DNA from: Ostreococcus lucimarinus | Lineage: Eukaryota | Strand: one strand, 5' to 3' | Assembly (NCBI GenBank): GCA_000092065.1 | Contig: CP000581.1 | DNA: 64,000 nucleotides | Shown here: one piece after another, positions 4,258 through 62,984 of the stretch | Layout of the letters: the number at the start of each line of letters is the position of its first letter | Numbering within the stretch: the stretch's first letter is position 1 | The notes under the pieces: model-generated | Database searches by the model: none | Told to the model about the DNA's origin: nothing | The model's input: only the letters and a program-made list of their open reading frames with translations | Position numbers and translations under genes: made by a program

Positions 4258-6708
4258 CTACACGACGGCCGATGATGGACCGTCCTCTGACATGCTCGAA
4301 TGCAACGACGCGTCGGCGTCTGCGTCGGCGGCAAAAAGCGCGATGGCGGAGCGATTCCAAAACACGCCGCTTTGCGCGTGCACGACGCCCCACACGTACG
4401 GTATTAAAAAGTACGGCGCGTTCACTTCGTCTTCGACGTACGCGAAACGCATGGGGTGGAAATCATGCACGGAACAATCGCGATCGCACGCGTTTTGGTT
4501 TCGCTTTTGCGGACTCGGCGTCAACGACGTCTCCGAAATCACGCGCTTGAGACGTCTGACGGAAATCGGGCTATCAGTCTCACGATTCTGTGCCGATTCG
4601 ACGGCGTCTTTGTAATGCTGCAGCACGGTCTCAATGTTTTGCACGTACTCCGCGAACACCTCGTGCGTTCGATACGTCGTGAGCAATTCTTCGCGGTGCA
4701 TGAGCGCGTAGACAATCTCCGGGTTGTGTTCGAGTGAATCGAGATCGGTGGCGAGACAGTTTAGTATCTCGAAAATGACCCGAATAAAGTCCTCGCACAC
4801 GTCCGCGTCGGAAAAGGGCTCGCGTAAACCATCGCTAGACAAAGCATTTTCGCGAGTGATTTTGAAGTACCTGCGCGTGAACAACGCCAGAGTATTCACC
4901 AGGCGTTGCGCCGCGTAACCAGAAATGTCGCGCGTGACGCATGCCATGTTGGCGATGCTGCCGAGTGCGTTCAACATTTTTGAAACTGTGGCAGTTTTTG
5001 CGACGTTGTACTTTATCGTGCGTGAAAGGACGACAACTATTAAACTTGCGAGCGAACTGTTTTGTAGGATGCGTTCCTTGTACCAATTTGACGACGCGAT
5101 CGTCTCCGTCTGCATCATCCTGTTGAACCGCACGTCCTGAGACAGGATCAAAAATATCGTGACAATCAACTGCGACACGTGTGCAAGTTTGTTTGATTCC
5201 GCTTCGTACAGCTCTTTGAGTAGCCCTTGTACAAACCTCGACGTCGCCGCACTCGAGCTCAAATGTGAAACGAACCGTGAGTTTGTGGATAGCGTCACGT
5301 ACGAAAGCAACAAGCCGACGTCGGTACACAAGGATGCGCTCAGAGCAACAGCGAGCCGCTCAAAGTCCACCAACTCCGAGGGTCTTTTGTTCGACGCCAC
5401 GGACGAACGCGACGAGATGTCCTTCATATTTTTTACCGCAATGCGAAACGGATTCTCGTCGCGGTTGCCGAAAGCGCCGTGCGTACACAACGCCAGGAAT
5501 AAATTTGCGCACTCGTCCGCGAGAGGAGATCGAGAAGTGTGCGCGCACTTGATGACGACGTGAGACCCCGTATTATCGGTGACGTCTTTGTTCGGCTTAC
5601 TGCGCATGGAAAGCATCGAACTTAGCACGCTCGCCATGCCGCGCGTGATTCCATTAGCTTCGGCGTTCTCTCTGTTGACCGCGCCTTCGTAAATATCACC
5701 GATGTTTGGTGGTCGCTCGATGACGCGACGCAACAGCGCGCACATCAGCACGCCCGTGCGCCTGCTGTCGCTTGAACCGATCGCCGCGATCCTGCGAGCG
5801 AGTGGATGCCCGATTTCTCTCGCCTCGGCGTCGTCGAGATTGAACGTGAGTTGCGACGACGTCGCGACGAGCAAAAGCCGCGCGCACGCAACATGCAACG
5901 CCATCGCCTGCGCTGTGACGTGTTTGCCGCATAGAACATCTACACACGCTCGCAGTAAGTCGTCAAACGGCGAAGTGTTCTCCAAAGACGCGTTCGGTCC
6001 TCCGCCGGTTTCCCAGCGCTCGTCTCGCGCAAACGTAGCGGCGAGCGCGCGCACTCGCTCGCTGCGCCCACCCCCGAGCGCGGCGACGCCACCAAATCCG
6101 CCATCACCCTCACTCGCGAATTCGATGAAATACTTGATGAATATCGACACCAACAAGGTGACGTTTATCGCGCTCACCGGCGTCGAGCGCGCGTTTCCGC
6201 TCGCCACGCTCAGTTGCCTCGCCGCGTGTTTCGCCAACTTATACAACCCACCATTTCGCGCGTTATTCACGAACAACGCCCGTCCATACGGCCGCAGTAT
6301 TTCATCTAGCGTCCTCTCGCTCACCGACGTCATCGGTTCACTCACCGCGTTCCCTATCTCGTACCAAAACACATCCGTAATCTCCGGCGTCGCGTCTCGC
6401 GTCTCGCACATCGCCTTTAGACTCCGTCGGAGTTCCCCGTACGTCCCGCTCACCGACGCCGTGGACGCGCGCGTCGTCGCGCGCGTCGTCGATCGGCCTC
6501 CCTCTCGTTCGCGTCTCGTCGCCGACGTCGTCGTCGTCGTCGTCGTCGTCGTCGCATCTTCCGCGCGTCGCGCACGATGATGTCTGCCACCTCGGTCGTT
6601 GTCGTTCGCGCGTTCGCGCGCGTCCGCCGCGTCGTCCGTCGCGTCGAGCGTCTCCCATTGATCGCCCTCGTCGTCGCCGCGCGTCGGCGTCGACGCCGCG
6701 CTCCCCAT
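4258..6708 (-). CDS. DYM: Dymeclin homolog
   Basis: Several blocks align to metazoan dymeclin: NWYKERILQNSSLASLIVVVLSRTIKYN, LEHNPEIVYALMHREELLTTYRTHEVF and the C-terminal YFLIPYVWGVVHAQSGVFWN. Start placed at MGSAAS (6708), giving the myristoylation-type MG start typical of dymeclin; the ORF track starts 12 codons earlier. Confidence 0.8.
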   Translation of the reverse strand: MGSAASTPTRGDDEGDQWETLDATDDAADARERANDNDRGGRHHRARRAEDATTTTTTTTTSATRREREGGRSTTRATTRASTASVSGTYGELRRSLKAMCETRDATPEITDVFWYEIGNAVSEPMTSVSERTLDEILRPYGRALFVNNARNGGLYKLAKHAARQLSVASGNARSTPVSAINVTLLVSIFIKYFIEFASEGDGGFGGVAALGGGRSERVRALAATFARDERWETGGGPNASLENTSPFDDLLRACVDVLCGKHVTAQAMALHVACARLLLVATSSQLTFNLDDAEAREIGHPLARRIAAIGSSDSRRTGVLMCALLRRVIERPPNIGDIYEGAVNRENAEANGITRGMASVLSSMLSMRSKPNKDVTDNTGSHVVIKCAHTSRSPLADECANLFLALCTHGAFGNRDENPFRIAVKNMKDISSRSSVASNKRPSELVDFERLAVALSASLCTDVGLLLSYVTLSTNSRFVSHLSSSAATSRFVQGLLKELYEAESNKLAHVSQLIVTIFLILSQDVRFNRMMQTETIASSNWYKERILQNSSLASLIVVVLSRTIKYNVAKTATVSKMLNALGSIANMACVTRDISGYAAQRLVNTLALFTRRYFKITRENALSSDGLREPFSDADVCEDFIRVIFEILNCLATDLDSLEHNPEIVYALMHREELLTTYRTHEVFAEYVQNIETVLQHYKDAVESAQNRETDSPISVRRLKRVISETSLTPSPQKRNQNACDRDCSVHDFHPMRFAYVEDEVNAPYFLIPYVWGVVHAQSGVFWNRSAIALFAADADADASLHSSMSEDGPSSAVV

Positions 6709-11681: not shown

Positions 11682-12360
11682 GCGCGCGCGCCGTGCGTAA
11701 TATCGCGCGCGCCGTGCGCTCATCGCATGTAATATCTGTATGTCTAGTAGAATTCGTTGTTGTTACACGCCGCGCGCCCGTCGTCGCAAAATCTAAAACT
11801 GCGCGATTCTCGGCAAGAGCGACGGCATCGCCGCGTGTCGTCGATAGTTCCCCGTCAACGCCAATCCGCGCGCGCCGAATCCCCCCCCCCCTCGCACGCT
11901 TTCGCAGCACGTCGTCGCCAACGCTTCTTCCCCGCTCGCCGCGAACGTCGTCGCGGTGTCTCCGCCTCCGCGCTCCCGCGCCCCCGTGTGCACGCCTTGC
12001 TTTTGCTTGTGTTTCGGCGACTTCGTGCACACCACGAACAGCCTCCCGCGCCGTCGCACGATCCTGCACGCCTCGCACAGTTTCTTTATCGCCGTTCGAA
12101 CCTATCGCGTCGCGCGTCGTCGTCGGCGTCAGTCGTCGCGTCGGTCCCGTCGTCGAGCGAGGCGTAGGTCACGCCGAGCGTCGCGTCGCGTCGCGTCGTC
12201 GCGTCGTCGCGTCGTCGGTCGCGCGCGCGACCGCGACCGCGTCGTCCGCGACGTCGTCCGCGACGTCGTCCGCCATCTCGCGCCATCTCGCGCACCTTCA
12301 TCGCGTCGAGGCGACGATCGCGCCGCAGTGCGGGACGCCGCGACGTCGCGCGGCGACGCC

Positions 12361-13077
12361 ATGGCGCGCGAAAACGTCTTCCACGTCGAAAAGCACGCCA
12401 ACGACGCGCTGCACAACCCGCCGAAGCGAGGGCGGACGCACACGGTGCGAGAGATCGAGGCCGCGGCGCGCGCGCTCGGACGCGCGACGACGAAGGACGA
12501 CGACGGCGACGGCGACGGCGATGGCGACGGCGTCGCCGCGGGCGACGTCGTCGTCGTCGATGGATGCGTCGTGCGCGTCGACGCGACGCGAAAACGATCG
12601 ACGAAGACGACGCGCGCGCGCGAGTCCGCGCTCGCGACGAGCGGGGCGCTGGGTAAGGGCAAACGAAGAGCGCTCGCGGAGGAGGACAGGTGGAAGACGA
12701 TGTCGCGCATCGAGAGCGGCGGGACGGCCGGCGCGGCGGCGCTTCGAGAGGCGAGGCGAGCGACGTTGGGACTGTCGCGCGGAGTTCGTGGGGAACGGGG
12801 CGACGACGACGGACCGGTCGTCGTGCCGGAGGGAGATTTACGCTTCGTCGACGGTTGGGCGGTCGGACGTCTGGACGGCGCGGCGGAAGGTTCGGAGACA
12901 GTAACGGGCGCGAGATCGCTCGATAGATCGCCCGACGGCGTCGCGGTGAAGTCGAAATCGATCGATGTATCGTTCGGACGCGCGAAGAAGAAGCGGCGAG
13001 ACGCGGGACGAGTCGCGGAGACGACGACGACGAGTCGACGCGTCGGCGGTTTATCGTTCGACGTCGAAGAAGATTAG
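12361..13077 (+). CDS. Hypothetical protein
   Basis: ATG at 12361 (MARENVFHVEKHANDALHNPPKRGRTH...). High GC3 coding bias. The ORF upstream of this ATG is Arg-rich non-coding read-through. Confidence 0.4.
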   Translation: MARENVFHVEKHANDALHNPPKRGRTHTVREIEAAARALGRATTKDDDGDGDGDGDGVAAGDVVVVDGCVVRVDATRKRSTKTTRARESALATSGALGKGKRRALAEEDRWKTMSRIESGGTAGAAALREARRATLGLSRGVRGERGDDDGPVVVPEGDLRFVDGWAVGRLDGAAEGSETVTGARSLDRSPDGVAVKSKSIDVSFGRAKKKRRDAGRVAETTTTSRRVGGLSFDVEED

Positions 13078-31920: not shown

Positions 31921-32217
31921 TCACGACGTCGCCTCGCGCGTCGTCTCCGGCGCGTCGCCGTTCCACCTCGCCCACCGTTGAAAATTATACGCCTGCACGT
32001 TCGCGTTCGCCGTGTGACACGCGAGCAGGATGTGATTCCTCGGCTGCACCCTCCACGCGAACCGCATGAACAGCCCGGAGTACACCACCAGCGCGCCCGT
32101 CATCGGTCCGCTGATCATCGACTCCGGCTTCTTCGTGTCCGCCAAGCCCTGCGCCCGTCGCGCGGCGTCGCGCCGCCGTCGTCAGTCGCCGCGTCCGTCG
32201 CTTCGCGTCCGTCGCTT

Positions 32218-32265
<48 letters not shown>

Positions 32266-32471
32266 CCGGTCGTCGTCGTCGTCCCGGTCGTCGTCGTCGT
32301 CCCGGTCGTCGTTCGACGCGCGTCGTCCGTCGTCGTCCGACGCGCGTCGCGCCGTCGTCCGATGCGCGGCGACGGACGCACCGCGAGCACGAACCCCCAG
32401 TTCGCGACGGGCCCCCAGAAGTGGGTCGTCCTCGGCCCCGTGGGGCTGTTGATGAAGGCGCGCACGCTCAT
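31921..32471 (-). CDS. MPC1: Mitochondrial pyruvate carrier 1 (two exons: 32382..32471 and 31921..32148)
   Basis: Exon 1 is MSVRAFINSPTGPRTTHFWGPVANWGFVLA. Exon 2 is GLADTKKPESMISGPMTGALVVYSGLFMRFAWRVQPRNHILLACHTANANVQ. Both align to human MPC1 (THFWGPVANWG ... [34 protein letters not shown]). Confidence 0.8.
32149..32381 (-). other. Spliceosomal intron (233 nt) in MPC1, carrying a ~90-nt (GTC)n microsatellite
   Basis: Donor GCG|GTGCGT and acceptor gcgcag|GGC, phase 0. Confidence 0.7.
32221..32310. repeat. (GTC)n trinucleotide microsatellite inside the MPC1 intron
   Basis: About 15 perfect GTC units, followed by CCCGGTC(GTC)4 blocks. Confidence 0.85.
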
Positions 32472-40214: not shown

Positions 40215-41126
40215 CGTCGACGACGCGCGCGGCGACTGACGACGACGCGCGAACGCCGGACAGATTCCACTCGCCCACGGACAGCGCGCTGAGCCCGGCG
40301 TCGAAATTCGTCGCGCGCAAGGCGCACCACGCGACGATCGCGATCGCGGATAAATCGCGCGCGGCGCCGCGTCCGGGCGTCGAAAACGCGAGCGAGGCGC
40401 CGCCGCGGTCGCGCTTCGCGCCCTCGTGATCGAACCGCCGCGACGGGCGCGGTCATTCTTTCCGACGCGTCGATCGATCGATCCGCGCGTCTTGTACATC
40501 ACACGCACATTATCTTTTCACGAGATCGCGTGATCGCGCCGTCGTCGTCCCGCGCGTCGGCGCCGCGCGCGTCCTCGCGTCTTCGCGTCTCGTCCGCGTC
40601 GACGCCGCGGGTTCGCTGTTTCCCCCGACGCGTTTCGATGGCGCCAGTCGATCGCGCGCGGCGCGTCGACGGCGAGCGTTCGGCGGACGCGCGCGCGGCG
40701 CGAACGCGAACGCGAACGCGAACGTCGAACGACGTCGACGTCGATCGCGACGTCGATCGCGACGCCGCGTCGCGCGCATTCGTTCAACGCGCGCGTGCAT
40801 TCATTCATTCGACGCGCGCGTTGAATTCATTGAATTCATCGCGAACGCGAACGCGACGCGATGCCGTACCTGGGCGGCGCGGTGGCGGCGAACGTGAACG
40901 ACGACGACGCGCTGGACGCGCGCCTGCACGCGAACGTCGCGATGCGACACGGCGGGGCGAGCCCGCTGAGGGTGGTGAAGTGCGTCGGCGAAGCGAAGCG
41001 CGCGAAGCGAAGGAAATCGAGCGAACGAAAGCGCGAAGCGACGCGACGACGCGAAGGGCGCGCGCGAGGTGACTGACGAGCGCACGTCGCGCGCGGTGTC
41101 GCAGGTTTCGAAGCGATCGGCGAGGG

Positions 41127-48659: not shown

Positions 48660-49823
48660 ATGGCGCTCGCCGCGCGCCGCGCGCCGCCGCGCGCGCTGGT
48701 CGCGCCTCGCGCGCGCGCGCGCCTCGCGCGCGCGAGCGTCCGCGCCTCGCGCGCGCCCGCGGTCGACGACGACGCGCGGTTCGGGCGGCGTCGCGACGCG
48801 CTCGCGCTCGGTGACGTCGTGGAGGTGCGTCTCGTGCGTCGACCGGGCGCGAGCGCGGGCGACGCGGCGACGGCGGTGGGAGAGATTTCAGATTTCGTGA
48901 CGAACTCGAGCTTTCACGCGGACGGGATCAAGGTGCGGCTGAAGAGCGGGGAGATTGGGCGGGTGACGCGCGCGCGCTGGGACGACGAAGACGACGAAGA
49001 CGAAGTCCACGAGGACGAGGACGAGTACGAGGACGAGGACGAAGACGAGGACGAGGACGCGCGTCAAACGTCATCGAGCGCGGCGACGACGTCGAACGGT
49101 GGTGAACGCGCGGGTGAGGCGCTTCGGACGGCGTACGTGTCCGGCGTCTCAAAGTCGTCGTCGGCGGCGGACGTCAAAGCGTTGGCTTCGGGATTACCGG
49201 GCGTCAAGAACGTGCGCGTGCCCGTGCGAGGAGGGTCGCACATGGGGTACATGTTCATCGAGTGCGCGGACGGCGATGGCATGCGAGGCGTGATCGAGGC
49301 TCTGCACGGACGGGAATTCCACGGCAAGGCGCTGGTCGCCGAGCGCGCGAAGGAGGATCCGAAACCGAAAAAGAAAAAGCCCAAGACCGATGCAGCGAGC
49401 GCGAAACTGAAAACGAAGAAGACAAAAACGCGCGCTGAGCTCGAGGCCGAAGCCGCGGCGCGCCGCATCCTCGACGCTCGCGCGCAAATGGAAGCCGACG
49501 CGCTCCTGGAACTCGAGCGCGCCAAACGCCGGCGAGAGCGCGAGCTCGAGGTCCGCGAGCGCGAGCTCGAGGTTCAGCGCGCGCTCGATCTCGACCGCGA
49601 ACGTCGCGCAAGAAACCTTCTCGAGCGGCGCGCCGCCGCCGCTCAGGCTCGCGCCGAGCGCGCTCGAGCCGCCGCCGACGCTCGCGAATCCGCGCTCTCC
49701 GCCGCGCGCGCGCTCGGCGACGTCCGCATCGATCCGTCCTGGCGTCCTCGCGCCGACGCTCTTCGCGAAACTCTCGCCCGTTTACGCGTCGACGCCGACG
49801 ATGGTCGACCCTCGCGCTCTTAG
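48660..49823 (+). CDS. Organelle-targeted protein with YwbE/DUF2196-like domain, RRM-like domain and coiled-coil tail
   Basis: Transit-peptide-like N-terminus, GDVVEVRLVRRPG...GEISDFVTNSSFHADGIKVRLKSGEIGRV (YwbE-like), acidic tract, RRM-like YVSGVS...GYMFIECADGDGMRGVIEALHGREFHGKALVAERA, then an Arg/Glu coiled coil. Confidence 0.5.
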   Translation: MALAARRAPPRALVAPRARARLARASVRASRAPAVDDDARFGRRRDALALGDVVEVRLVRRPGASAGDAATAVGEISDFVTNSSFHADGIKVRLKSGEIGRVTRARWDDEDDEDEVHEDEDEYEDEDEDEDEDARQTSSSAATTSNGGERAGEALRTAYVSGVSKSSSAADVKALASGLPGVKNVRVPVRGGSHMGYMFIECADGDGMRGVIEALHGREFHGKALVAERAKEDPKPKKKKPKTDAASAKLKTKKTKTRAELEAEAAARRILDARAQMEADALLELERAKRRRERELEVRERELEVQRALDLDRERRARNLLERRAAAAQARAERARAAADARESALSAARALGDVRIDPSWRPRADALRETLARLRVDADDGRPSRS

Positions 49824-50240
49824 CGCCGTAGCCCTTCGTTGTAGCTTGTAGCGGTTGTAGCGGCGAGCCTTTCGCCTCGAGAGATTTCGCCAAATCATGG
49901 TCGAGCCGCGTTTTTCGCCAAGTGATGGTAAAAACGGACCTCGCGGGACGGGGTCGCCTCCCGCGCGCTCGCATCCGCCTTTTCACGACGCACGCGAGAG
50001 AAGAGTACGTCACGACCGCCGACGCGCGCGCGCGAACGCAATCGAACCATTCGCGTCGCCTCGCGCGCGCTCGTGAAGCGACGCGTGGCGCGACCGACGC
50101 ACCGACCGCCGCGACGCACCGGGCCAAACCCCGAGCGCGCCGCGATCGCGCATCGCGCGTGAAACCTCTCGCGCGAGCGCGAGCGCGCGAACAAGAGACT
50201 GACGATCGACGCGCGCGTTTCGTTTTCATCATTCACAGTG

Positions 50241-51541
50241 TCTCATCGCAAGTTTGAACGTACGTGGCGACGCGAGGCGCGGCACGATGATCTCGGGACG
50301 CGATCGCGCAAAGCCCTAGCGGCGAAGGTGACCTCGCGCGACTCGACTCGGTGATGCGACGCGAACGATGACTGACGAAGACGTGTTGTGTGTGAAATAT
50401 AGACCCGCGTTACGGTAACCTCGGTTTCTTGCCGAAGAAGCGCTCGAAGCGCAGCCGGGGTAAGGTCAAGTCGTTCCCGAAGGATGACGCGAGCAAGCCG
50501 CCGCACCTCACCGCGTTCATGGGCTTCAAGGCTGGCATGACGCACATCGTTCGCGATGTCGATAAGCCCGGCTCGAAGATGCACAAGAAGGAAACGTGCG
50601 AATCGGTGACGATCATCGAGTGCCCGGAACTCATCGTGGTTGGCCTCGTCGGTTACGTGCGCACGCCGAAGGGCTTGCGCGGGAAGAAGACGGTGTGGGC
50701 CGAACACTTGAACGATGAAGTCCGCCGTCGATTCTACAAGAACTGGTTCAAGTCCAAGAAGAAGGCGTTCACCAAGTACACGAAGAACTACACCAACGGT
50801 TCCATCGACAAGGACTTGGACGAGCTCAAGAAGTCTTGCGACGTCATTCGCGTCATCGCGCACACGCAAGTGCGCAAGGTTTCAGGCTTGAAGCAAAAGA
50901 AGGCTCACATTATGGAGATTCAAGTTAACGGTGGTGACGTCGCCGCCAAGGTTGACTTTGGCTACGCTCTCTTCGAAAAGGCTGTGCCGGTCGACACCGT
51001 GTTCCAGCAAGACGAAATGATTGATCTCATCGGCGTCACGAAGGGTAAGGGTTACGAAGGCGTCGTCACCCGTTGGGGCGTCACCCGACTTCCGCGCAAG
51101 ACCCACAGAGGTTTGCGTAAGGTTGGTTGCATCGGTGCGTGGCACCCGTCGCGTGTTTCCTACACGGTTGCCCGTGCGGGTCAACACGGTTACCATCACC
51201 GTACGGAAATCAACAAGAAGGTGTACAAGATCGGCAAGGCTGGTCAAGACAGCTTCGGTGCGAGTACGTTCCACGACCCGACGGAGAAGGAAATCACCCC
51301 GATGGGTGGCTTCGCGCACTACGGTATCGTCAAGCACGACTACGTCATGATCAAGGGTGGTGTCGTCGGCCCGCGCAAGCGCTTGATCACGATGCGTCAA
51401 TCTCTCTTCAAGCAAACGCGTCGCGTCGCCACGGAGAAGATTACGCTCAAGTTCATCGACACCTCGTCCAAGTTCGGTCACGGTCGCTTCCAAACCTCCG
51501 AAGAGAAGGCGAAGGTTTTCGGTACGACGAAGCAAGCGTAA
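50241..51541 (+). CDS. RPL3: 60S ribosomal protein L3 (exons 50241..50259 and 50403..51541; start codon unresolved)
   Basis: Exon 2 gives (H)[28 protein letters not shown]...full RPL3. Upstream exon TCT CAT CGC AAG TTT GAA C encodes SHRKFE(H), matching [21 protein letters not shown]. The codon before Ser is GTG, immediately after ttcacag. Confidence 0.85.
50260..50402 (+). other. Spliceosomal intron (143 nt) in RPL3
   Basis: Donor C|GTACGT and acceptor aaatatag|AC, phase 1. Joining regenerates the conserved His codon CAC. Confidence 0.8.
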
Positions 51542-51686
51542 GCTTCTTTGTCGTTCGCAATCGCTGGTTAGTCACGTTTGTTTTAATGTCGAAGACGCAT
51601 TTTTAGCTAAACATAATAAACTCCGAGGTCCCGGTCGGCGTCTCTGCGAACGCGCTTAAGTCGTTACGGTGGCTGATTCTCGAAGA

Positions 51687-51691
51687 TTACA
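51687..51691 (-). promoter_or_regulatory. TGTAA polyadenylation-signal motif overlapping the CURT1 TAA stop codon
   Basis: Plus strand ttaca at 51687-51691, so the minus strand reads TGTAA with TAA as the stop. Confidence 0.45.
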
Positions 51692-52079
51692 AAATCTTGT
51701 TCAAGGTCTTAGTGACGGTCTCTTTCAACGCCGCGCGGTCGGGCTTGTAGAGGAGGTTCTGGTACACGAAGAAACCCGAGAAGAGGATCCCGACGAGTTC
51801 GAGAAGGTCCGGGATGAGCGGCAACGAGTCCACCGCGCGAAGCGTACCGTTCGCCGCGACGAGACCGACGAACCCGTACACACTGAGCGTCACGATCGCC
51901 GGCTTTTCATCCGACTCCTCCCACTTCTCCGAGAGCGTGTCCGTGACTTCTCTCAACTTGTCTTGCAAGTCGTCCGCCGCGGCTCTGCGCGCCACGAATC
52001 GCGCGGGTCGCGCCGCGCGAGACTTCATCGTCATTCGCGTCGTCGTCGGCGCCTTCGCCGTGATTCTCGTCGCAAGCAT
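51687..52079 (-). CDS. CURT1: CURT1 (curvature thylakoid 1, CAAD-domain) family protein
   Basis: Transit peptide, then LSVYGFVGLVAANGTLRAVDSLPLIPDLLELVGILFSGFFVYQNLLYKPDRAALKE matches CURT1/TMP14. Stop TAA is embedded in a minus-strand TGTAA. Confidence 0.75.
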   Translation of the reverse strand: MLATRITAKAPTTTRMTMKSRAARPARFVARRAAADDLQDKLREVTDTLSEKWEESDEKPAIVTLSVYGFVGLVAANGTLRAVDSLPLIPDLLELVGILFSGFFVYQNLLYKPDRAALKETVTKTLNKIL

Positions 52080-52663
52080 CGTCGTCGGCTTTATCTATCC
52101 TTCGTTCGCCATCGCGCGCGCATCGTCAGTCGTTTTTCGCCTCCATCCGCGACCGCGTCTCGCCGCAATCCAATCAATCAATCTTTCGCCCGCGCCAACG
52201 TCACGCCCGATCGATCGTCCGCATCGCGTCCACCCGCGTCGTTTTTCGCGCGTTCGCTCGCGTCGTTCGCGCGCGTCTCGCCGCGATCGTTCGCGCGTCG
52301 CGCGCGCGCGTCGCTTCTTCGTCGTCGCTCGACGCACCGCGTGGATCAGTGGCGCTCGCGCGTGTCGTCGCCATCGTATCTTTCCCGTCCGCGCGGGTCT
52401 CGCGGGGGTCGTTCGCGAGTCACGAACGGCGAAACCGGGGACTCCTCGAATTATACACACGGAACACACGCGTCGTCCGCGGTCGGTCGACCCATCGCGC
52501 GCCGCGCACCGCGACGCGCGCGCGCGCGCGATCCGCGCGCGGACGAACGGGTCGTCGCGATCGCGATCGCGCGCGCGCCGGCGTCGCGACGCGATCGCGG
52601 ACGCGCGCGGCGAAGAAGCGCGATCGATCGGCGCGCGGTGGTTAGCGAGGCGGCCGGGAGGCG

Positions 52664-62588: not shown

Positions 62589-62984
62589 ATGACGGCGACG
62601 AAGGAAAAGGCCATCATCAAGGCGGCGGACATGCCGGACGTGCGTGTCGGCGATCGCGACGCGCGCCGACGCGCCGACGCGCCGACGCGCCGACGCGACA
62701 AAGTCAACGAGAACGATGACGACGACGAACGCGACGACTGACGACGCGAACGCGCGCAGGACATCCAAGACGACGCGGTGACGGTGTCCATGGAGGCGAT
62801 GGAAAAGTTCAACGTCGAGAAGGACATCGCGGCGCACGTGAAGAAGGAATTCGATAGAAAGCACGGCCCGACGTGGCACTGCGTCGTGGGGAGAAATTTT
62901 GGAAGTTACGTCACGCACGAGAGCGGACACTTCATCTATTACTACATAGCCAACGTCGCGTTTTTGTTGTTTAAAGCGGGCTAG
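62589..62984 (+). CDS. DYNLL: Dynein light chain LC8 (two exons: 62589..62639 and 62760..62984)
   Basis: Exon 2 gives ...[64 protein letters not shown]. The missing N-terminus [17 protein letters not shown] (compare human MSDRKAVIKNADMSEEMQ) lies 120 nt upstream. Confidence 0.85.
62640..62759 (+). other. Spliceosomal intron (120 nt) in DYNLL
   Basis: Donor GAC|GTGCGT and acceptor cgcgcag|GAC, phase 0. Confidence 0.75.

Follow-up and report, generated by a model that had tools for sequence, protein, structure and literature searches.

The gene for the cytosolic 60S ribosomal protein uL3 (RPL3) lies on the + strand of the nuclear DNA of Ostreococcus lucimarinus, within the stretch of 64,000 nt that was analysed here (the window, to whose positions all coordinates refer unless a contig is named). 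The gene order between 47122 and 52079 is Methyltransf_16, a DUF2196+RRM protein (48660-49823), RPL3 and, on the - strand, a CAAD protein. Syntenic metagenomic contigs (L005-L012) show that this order is kept between Ostreococcus lineages and largely kept in Micromonas-type contigs. Only 415 nt (49824-50238) separate the stop of the upstream gene from exon 2 of RPL3. Upon splicing of base 50004 to 50239-50259 and 50403-51541, the gene encodes a protein of 386 residues, which was recognized in a family profile search as a member of PF00297 (Ribosomal_L3; E-value 9.7e-177, 587.9 bits against a cut-off of 22), with residues 1-366 spanning profile positions 1-369 of 369, as expected for a full-length uL3. 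The model agrees at 386 of 386 residues with the public O. lucimarinus entry 'Ribosomal protein L3' (P0002; ABO93677.1 / XP_001415385.1), and it starts directly with MSHRKFE, the conserved N-terminus of eukaryotic uL3. The same residues begin the orthologues P0005, P0009, P0017, P0124-P0133, P0151 and P0204, among them the O. tauri record OUS42918.1 (P0125).

Where does the methionine of this N-terminus come from? The codons TCT CAT CGC AAG TTT GAA, which specify SHRKFE, are found at 50241-50258, and given that the protein is a full-length uL3 whose orthologues all begin with MSHRKFE, their occurrence is not a matter of chance. A preliminary description of this DNA had pointed out that they follow a GTG instead of an ATG, and that no in-frame ATG exists before the next stop upstream. 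Both statements hold: the preceding codon is GTG (50238-50240), and the frame, when followed upstream, runs into a TGA at 50160-50162 without ever meeting an ATG. The only ATGs in 49700-50260, at 49801, 49897 and 49925, are all out of frame, and a sequence scan detected none of any frame between 49930 and 50238. The acceptor-like ttcacag that had been placed directly before the GTG is indeed an acceptor (ttcacaG, 50232-50238), but it overlaps the GTG, whose first G, at 50238, is the last base of the acceptor; the exon accordingly opens not at 50241, as had been stated, but at 50239 with TG. An upstream search for an exon ending in A and followed by GT, as suggested in the same description, finds just two A/GT sites in the 415-nt interval 49824-50238, at 49921 and 50004. 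The A at 50004 is followed by GTACGT, and the position 50005 is the only + strand occurrence of GTRCGT between the upstream stop and the acceptor.

The connection between these sites is established by transcripts. An exact look-up of P0002 yielded four contigs of 1215-1229 nt (L001-L004), whose sources are three JGI samples and one SRA run. These are environmental assemblies and do not represent cap-mapped cDNAs of the sequenced strain. All four are devoid of both introns and thus derive from spliced RNA, they have mRNA-like ends in common, and they deviate from the three-exon model by 0, 1, 0 and 1 mismatches, respectively, over their 1215-1229 nt. L001 (1229 nt), the sole contig that reaches more than 2 nt upstream of the ATG, matches 49993-50004 + 50239-50259 + 50403-51598 with 0 mismatches. 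It starts with cgcgagagaaga^tgtctcatcgcaagtttgaac^acccgcg (carets mark splice junctions), reading cgcgagagaaga^tgtctcat across the first junction. This junction, CGCGAGAGAAGA^TGTCTCAT, joins two genomic segments, of which CGCGAGAGAAGA equals 49993-50004 and is a 12-mer found nowhere else in the window. In the other three contigs, the ATG is preceded by 1-2 nt that agree with L001, and a reconstituted AUG stands at the head of the open reading frame in all four, (cgcgagagaag)ATGTCTCATCGC.... In the genome, the two sites read ...GAAGA^GTACGT (50004/50005) and CACAG^TGTCT (50238/50239). Since TG is preceded in the genome by a G (50238), and A50004 is likewise followed by a G, the A of the ATG can only be 50004. 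We therefore conclude, with a probability of about 97%, that the start codon of RPL3 is assembled by splicing from A (50004) and TG (50239-50240), with intron 1 extending from 50005 to 50238. This is the model that the preliminary description had favored, an A at the end of a 5'UTR exon and TG after the cag, and the direct joining of 49993-50004 to 50239 in L001 confirms it.

In the resulting gene structure, all of it on the + strand, the pyrimidine-rich CCTTTTCACG at 49978-49987, a conserved CCYTTTTC-type motif, is the candidate transcription start region. Exon 1, as seen in the transcripts, covers 49993-50004 (bases 1-12 of L001) and consists of a 5'UTR portion of 11 nt and, as the last base, the A of the ATG; its true 5' end is probably located a few to about 15 nt further upstream of 49993. 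Intron 1 (50005-50238), a GT-AG intron of 234 nt that splits the start codon in phase 1 into A/TG and is missing from the four RNA-derived contigs, comprises the donor GTACGT (50005-50010), the branch motif GACTGACG (50197-50204), whose branch A (50202) lies at a distance of 36 nt from the acceptor, and the acceptor CAG (50236-50238). The subsequent exon 2 (50239-50259), defined by L001-L004 and by its translation, has only 21 nt, made up of the TG of the ATG, the SHRKFE codons and a C that opens the His8 codon. Intron 2 (50260-50402, 143 nt), likewise missing from L001-L004, interrupts codon 8 in phase 1, reading GAA C^GTACGT ... TAG^AC CCG, and displays the same kind of signals, a GTACGT donor (50260-50265), GACTGACG (50370-50377) and a TAG acceptor (50400-50402). 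The coding part of exon 3 (50403-51541) completes the His8 codon with its first two bases and ends with the TAA at 51539-51541, its translation agreeing with P0002, and is followed by a 3'UTR of 57 nt (51542-51598) that terminates with ...TTTTAATGTCGAAGACGC at the common 3' end of L001-L003.

In the expression of uL3, the 5'UTR comes from a very short first exon whose final base, 50004, is the A of the ATG; a canonical U2-type GT-AG intron of 234 nt is removed, and exon 2 contributes TG followed by SHRKFE. The mature mRNA, ...GAGAAG AUG UCU CAU..., with an A at position -3, then undergoes ordinary AUG initiation. The AUG, in the context GAGAAG AUG U, is present only in the spliced mRNA. In a transcript retaining intron 1, the first AUG would be out of frame and the next one would be that of Met47, with no in-frame AUG earlier, such that the production of full-length uL3 would depend on the removal of intron 1. 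The public protein, identical to our model and starting with Met, implies that the public O. lucimarinus CDS already takes the A from an upstream exon, since a genomic sequence without a contiguous ATG offers no other source for this residue.

Could translation instead begin without an AUG? The GTG at 50238-50240 adjoins the SHRKFE codons in frame, and no stop intervenes as far upstream as 50163, so that initiation at this GTG, or at a near-cognate codon within 50163-50240, might be envisaged on an unspliced leader. The partly spliced RNA of a related Ostreococcus (L055), which keeps the 3' end of intron 1 and was automatically called with a V start (P0128), is in line with such a scenario. 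However, splicing has taken place in each of the four O. lucimarinus RNA contigs, which carry an AUG, the G of the GTG is part of a conserved CAG acceptor downstream of the GACTGACG branch motif, and M begins the public protein as well as the culture-transcriptome proteins of the relatives, which refutes a GUG start for the mature mRNA and leaves non-AUG initiation very improbable. The preliminary description had offered it as an alternative to the split codon, along with an unseen micro-exon, which would sit between the 5'UTR exon and exon 2 and supply a complete ATG. The latter would account for the missing contiguous ATG, the one point in its favor, but it has no place in L001, where 50004 is joined straight to 50239 with zero extra bases, and it would have to reside in a region, 49930-50238, that contains no ATG at all; we accord it next to no credence.

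It could also be argued that the spliced contigs are assembly chimeras or reflect a processed copy elsewhere, while the genomic locus itself is 5'-truncated or mis-assembled. The contigs are, after all, environmental assemblies, and two from another lineage (L047 and L049) carry adapter-like 5' ends. Yet the 12 nt at the start of L001 correspond to a unique 12-mer 234 nt upstream that abuts a consensus donor, and the probability of a chance match of 12 nt within 400 nt is about 2e-5. Moreover, mRNA-like 5' and 3' ends are common to all contigs, and the A/TG architecture recurs in three other lineages, in independent contigs with conserved synteny. An artifact of this kind is hence exceedingly unlikely, and we retain the start codon created by splicing as the explanation for the locus. 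Two further donors in the upstream region can be joined to 50239, ATG^GTAAAA at 49925-49933 and ATG^GTCGAG at 49897; both yield out-of-frame open reading frames, and neither has support from any contig.

In its make-up, intron 1 resembles the canonical introns of O. lucimarinus and the Mamiellophyceae outside chromosome 2, with GT-AG borders, a GTGCGTG-like donor, GACTGACG and a YAG 27-36 nt downstream, and its size falls into their length range of 100-250 nt; it is unusual solely in its position inside the initiator codon. In EST-confirmed O. lucimarinus introns outside chromosome 2, the 5' splice site consensus is GTGCGTG, ACTGAC is found in 87%, and GACTGACG, the published extended branch motif, in 66.5% (Irimia and Roy, PMC2483917), while the corresponding signals in Micromonas are AG^GTGCGT and NCTGAC (Verhelst et al., PMC3879977). 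Both RPL3 introns combine a GTACGT donor with an exact GACTGACG, situated 36 nt before the CAG of intron 1 and 27 nt before the TAG of intron 2. The extended donor of intron 1, GTACGTC, agrees with the consensus GTGCGTG at 5 of 7 positions, and that of another Ostreococcus lineage (L012) is GTGCGTG itself. Throughout the window, GACTGACG occurs 14 times where 4.6 occurrences are expected, a three-fold excess that was reached in 0 of 100 shuffles. Taken by itself, the donor hexamer GTRCGT shows no enrichment in the window (100 occurrences as against 99 expected), and it therefore carries weight only together with the other signals.

The A/TG split is not confined to O. lucimarinus, but was found in three other Ostreococcus lineages (L006, L012 and L055). 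The genomic contig L006 reads ...CTCAAGA^GTACGT...GACTGACGA...GCGCAG^TGTCTCACCGTAAATTCGAAC^GTACGT, and its three-exon model reproduces P0131, the open reading frame of an MMETSP transcript, exactly. The genomic contig L012, ...GACAAA^GTGCGT...GACTGACGA...GCGCAG^TGTCGCACCG..., yields a model that is exactly P0009, and the RNA contigs L047-L049 of this lineage read GACAAA^TGTCGCACC, also given as GACAAA^TGTCGCAC, across the junction. The first bases of such Logan RNA contigs are not transcript sequence, as L047 and L049 both begin, at their positions 1-19, with AGATGTGTATAAGAGACAG, presumably a Nextera transposase adapter left untrimmed in the public assemblies. In the fourth lineage, the RNA contig L055 is partly spliced: within its first 60 nt (L055:1-60), intron 2 is gone, while 23 nt from the 3' end of intron 1 (...ttcttttcgcgcag) are kept before the acceptor site, ...ttcttttcgcgcag^TGTCTCACC (...gcgcag^TGTCTCACC). 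This shows that partly spliced molecules retaining intron 1 exist in a related lineage, and the V start (GTG) of P0128, the JGI call on this contig, shows that automatic calls can mimic non-AUG initiation.

What is conserved of intron 1 between the lineages is limited to the elements of splicing. An alignment of the intron from three Ostreococcus lineages, in which MAFFT misaligned the short exon 1, revealed conserved splice signals, branch motif and exon, and an interior that is not conserved. The fold of exon 1, intron 1 and exon 2 gave no structure signal (z -0.99), and an Rfam scan of 49700-50500 for snoRNAs or other intron-hosted RNAs returned just sub-threshold miRNA-family noise on GC-rich palindromes. 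In another Ostreococcus lineage, intron 1 harbors a microsatellite of GGGATG or GCGATG units (L012:1660-1700; gggatgggatgggatgggatgggatgcgatgcgatgcgat) that is missing from the O. lucimarinus intron, which is consistent with an unconstrained interior.

Outside Ostreococcus, in the contigs of the Bathycoccus, Micromonas and Mantoniella type, the start codon of RPL3 is contiguous. In a Bathycoccus-type contig (L015:1-430), the gene begins AACAAT ATG TCT CAC AGA AAG TTT GAA C^GTGAGT, with no AG before the ATG. This contig has intron 2 (phase 1, codon 8) in common with the Ostreococcus contigs, here with a GTGAGT donor and a length of about 400 nt, and the intron is missing from all Micromonas-type contigs (L009, L010, L017). 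In genomic contigs of the Micromonas and Mantoniella type, CAG precedes the contiguous ATG without exception in at least six upstream sequences that have strongly diverged, and all of these show a pyrimidine-rich tract as well as a CTNAC motif 31-51 nt upstream. Further upstream, at 400-470 nt, the Micromonas-type sequences contain a conserved block, ...GAAGACAC(C/T)(A/T)AAG^GTGAGC or ...GAGACTAGCAAG^GTGAGC, and the Ostreococcus locus possesses these elements in compressed form, CCTTTTCACG...GAGAGAAGA^GTACGT. A metagenome scan for a Micromonas transcript with a 5'UTR recovered Micromonas contigs that were all genomic, and its transcript matches came from unrelated organisms; the look-ups of P0194, P0188 and P0167 led to a contig starting at the ATG or to genomic contigs.

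A further element of these upstream regions is a CCYTTTTC(A/C)CG motif, which precedes the donor of intron 1 in every Mamiellales RPL3 locus examined. Its distance to the donor is 17-26 nt in three Ostreococcus lineages and, in about 10 Micromonas-type contigs, where it reads CCCTTTT, about 50 nt to the putative GTGAGC donor. In O. lucimarinus, where CCTTTTC stands about 26 nt before the donor, transcription of RPL3 probably starts within this conserved motif, which could be a pyrimidine-tract (TOP-like) transcription start. The longest RNA contig begins 8 nt downstream of it. As a general start-site motif, CYYTTTYMCG is not enriched in the window (4 found, 2 expected), and one of its matches (4809-4818) lies inside coding sequence.

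Judged by these signals, the 5' introns of the two groups are likely homologous and offset by one base, with AAG^...CAG^ATG in Micromonas as compared to AAGA^...CAG^TG in Ostreococcus. The predicted mature start sequence is alike in both, CAAG AUG UCU, with the intron boundaries one base apart; these boundaries come from transcripts in Ostreococcus and, in Micromonas, from splice-like signals that are conserved in at least six diverged upstream sequences. The offset could have been brought about by two harmless one-base changes, an A added to the 3' end of exon 1 and the subsequent loss of the A after the CAG. Two such neutral steps would be enough, since the shifted base is located at the border between UTR and ATG, unlike in the sliding of an intron within coding sequence. 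The one-base offset by itself is in our estimate somewhat more probable than not. A more far-reaching scenario, in which the A/TG split arose by a one-base shift of an ancestral 5'UTR intron of the Mamiellophyceae, ending exactly at CAG^ATG in Micromonas, and was maintained across Ostreococcus because it ties uL3 synthesis strictly to the removal of intron 1, as a splicing-gated and possibly autoregulatory checkpoint on ribosomal protein production, is decidedly unlikely as a whole. It is the regulatory part that renders it so, and no evidence for a regulatory use of intron 1, in the form of a conserved interior or an unusual fold, was found.

Introns close to the ATG, downstream of a tiny first exon, are classical in ribosomal protein genes, with well-known examples among yeast genes, some of which are autoregulated through splicing. 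Like these genes, RPL3 is a highly expressed ribosomal protein gene, has a tiny first exon and is interrupted by an intron right where its open reading frame begins, whereas its intron 1 differs from the autoregulated yeast introns in showing no sign of regulation, no conserved interior and no unusual fold. Split start codons have precedents as well. In Yarrowia lipolytica, the 5' splice site of 42 'start codon introns' follows one of the three bases of the initiator (A, T or G), and the genes that contain them are highly expressed and efficiently spliced (PMC13309789); in vertebrates, the start codon of VAMP1 is split as AT/G (TOGA2 preprint). As in RPL3, an intron inside or directly after the initiator ATG entails in these cases that the AUG or its context is made by splicing. 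What sets RPL3 apart is the split after the first base (A/TG), the setting of an intron-poor green alga and the lineage-specific GTRCGT / GACTGACG signals. A literature search for split starts in ribosomal protein genes of Ostreococcus or Micromonas turned up nothing specific. The likely offset between ...AAGA^GT...CAG^TG in Ostreococcus and ...AAG^GTGAGC, 400-470 nt, CAG^ATG in Micromonas, the latter deduced from genomic signals, bears a likeness to one-base intron sliding, which is described as rare and debated (PMC7730772, PMC5010894).

What, then, is the significance of the split start codon? It is real and ordinary, given that split start codons are a known phenomenon and that this one is already contained in the public protein record. 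To this, our analysis makes small additions: the exact donor as proven by RNA, the conservation of the split across Ostreococcus, and the probable one-base offset relative to Micromonas. RPL3 provides, in an intron-poor picoalga, a clean and transcript-proven case of an initiator codon generated through splicing and, together with the comparison to Micromonas, of a likely one-base intron offset that could be reached by neutral steps at the border between UTR and ATG. Neither the start codon created by splicing nor the one-base offset alters current understanding.

The practical consequences concern annotation, as gene finders that demand a contiguous ATG fail on RPL3. Prokaryote-style callers, when applied to marine metagenomes, have produced hundreds of truncated uL3 proteins of 369-370 residues, which use a TTG start at 50429 (50429-51541, +); two of these versions, P0121 and P0132, are found on 186 and 550 contigs, respectively. 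Other miscalled forms include P0006 (MRRLTRVSFCFCSYAD...), the N-terminus of which was read from intron 2, and P0112, in which the C-terminus is frameshifted. In metagenome protein catalogues, uL3 is thus systematically mis-annotated.

The combination of signals seen in the RPL3 introns is also encountered elsewhere in the window. The neighboring CAAD-domain gene (51687-52079, -) has a probable 5'UTR intron at 52095-52337 (-), with GTGCGT at 52337, GACTGACG at 52131-52124 and a TAG ending at 52095, 15 nt before the ATG at 52079. Additional GTRCGT...GACTGACG...YAG arrangements of 120-340 nt, at 40980-41104 (+), 62640-62759 (+), 32149-32381 (-) and 12102-12441 (-), look like canonical O. lucimarinus introns in their sequence.
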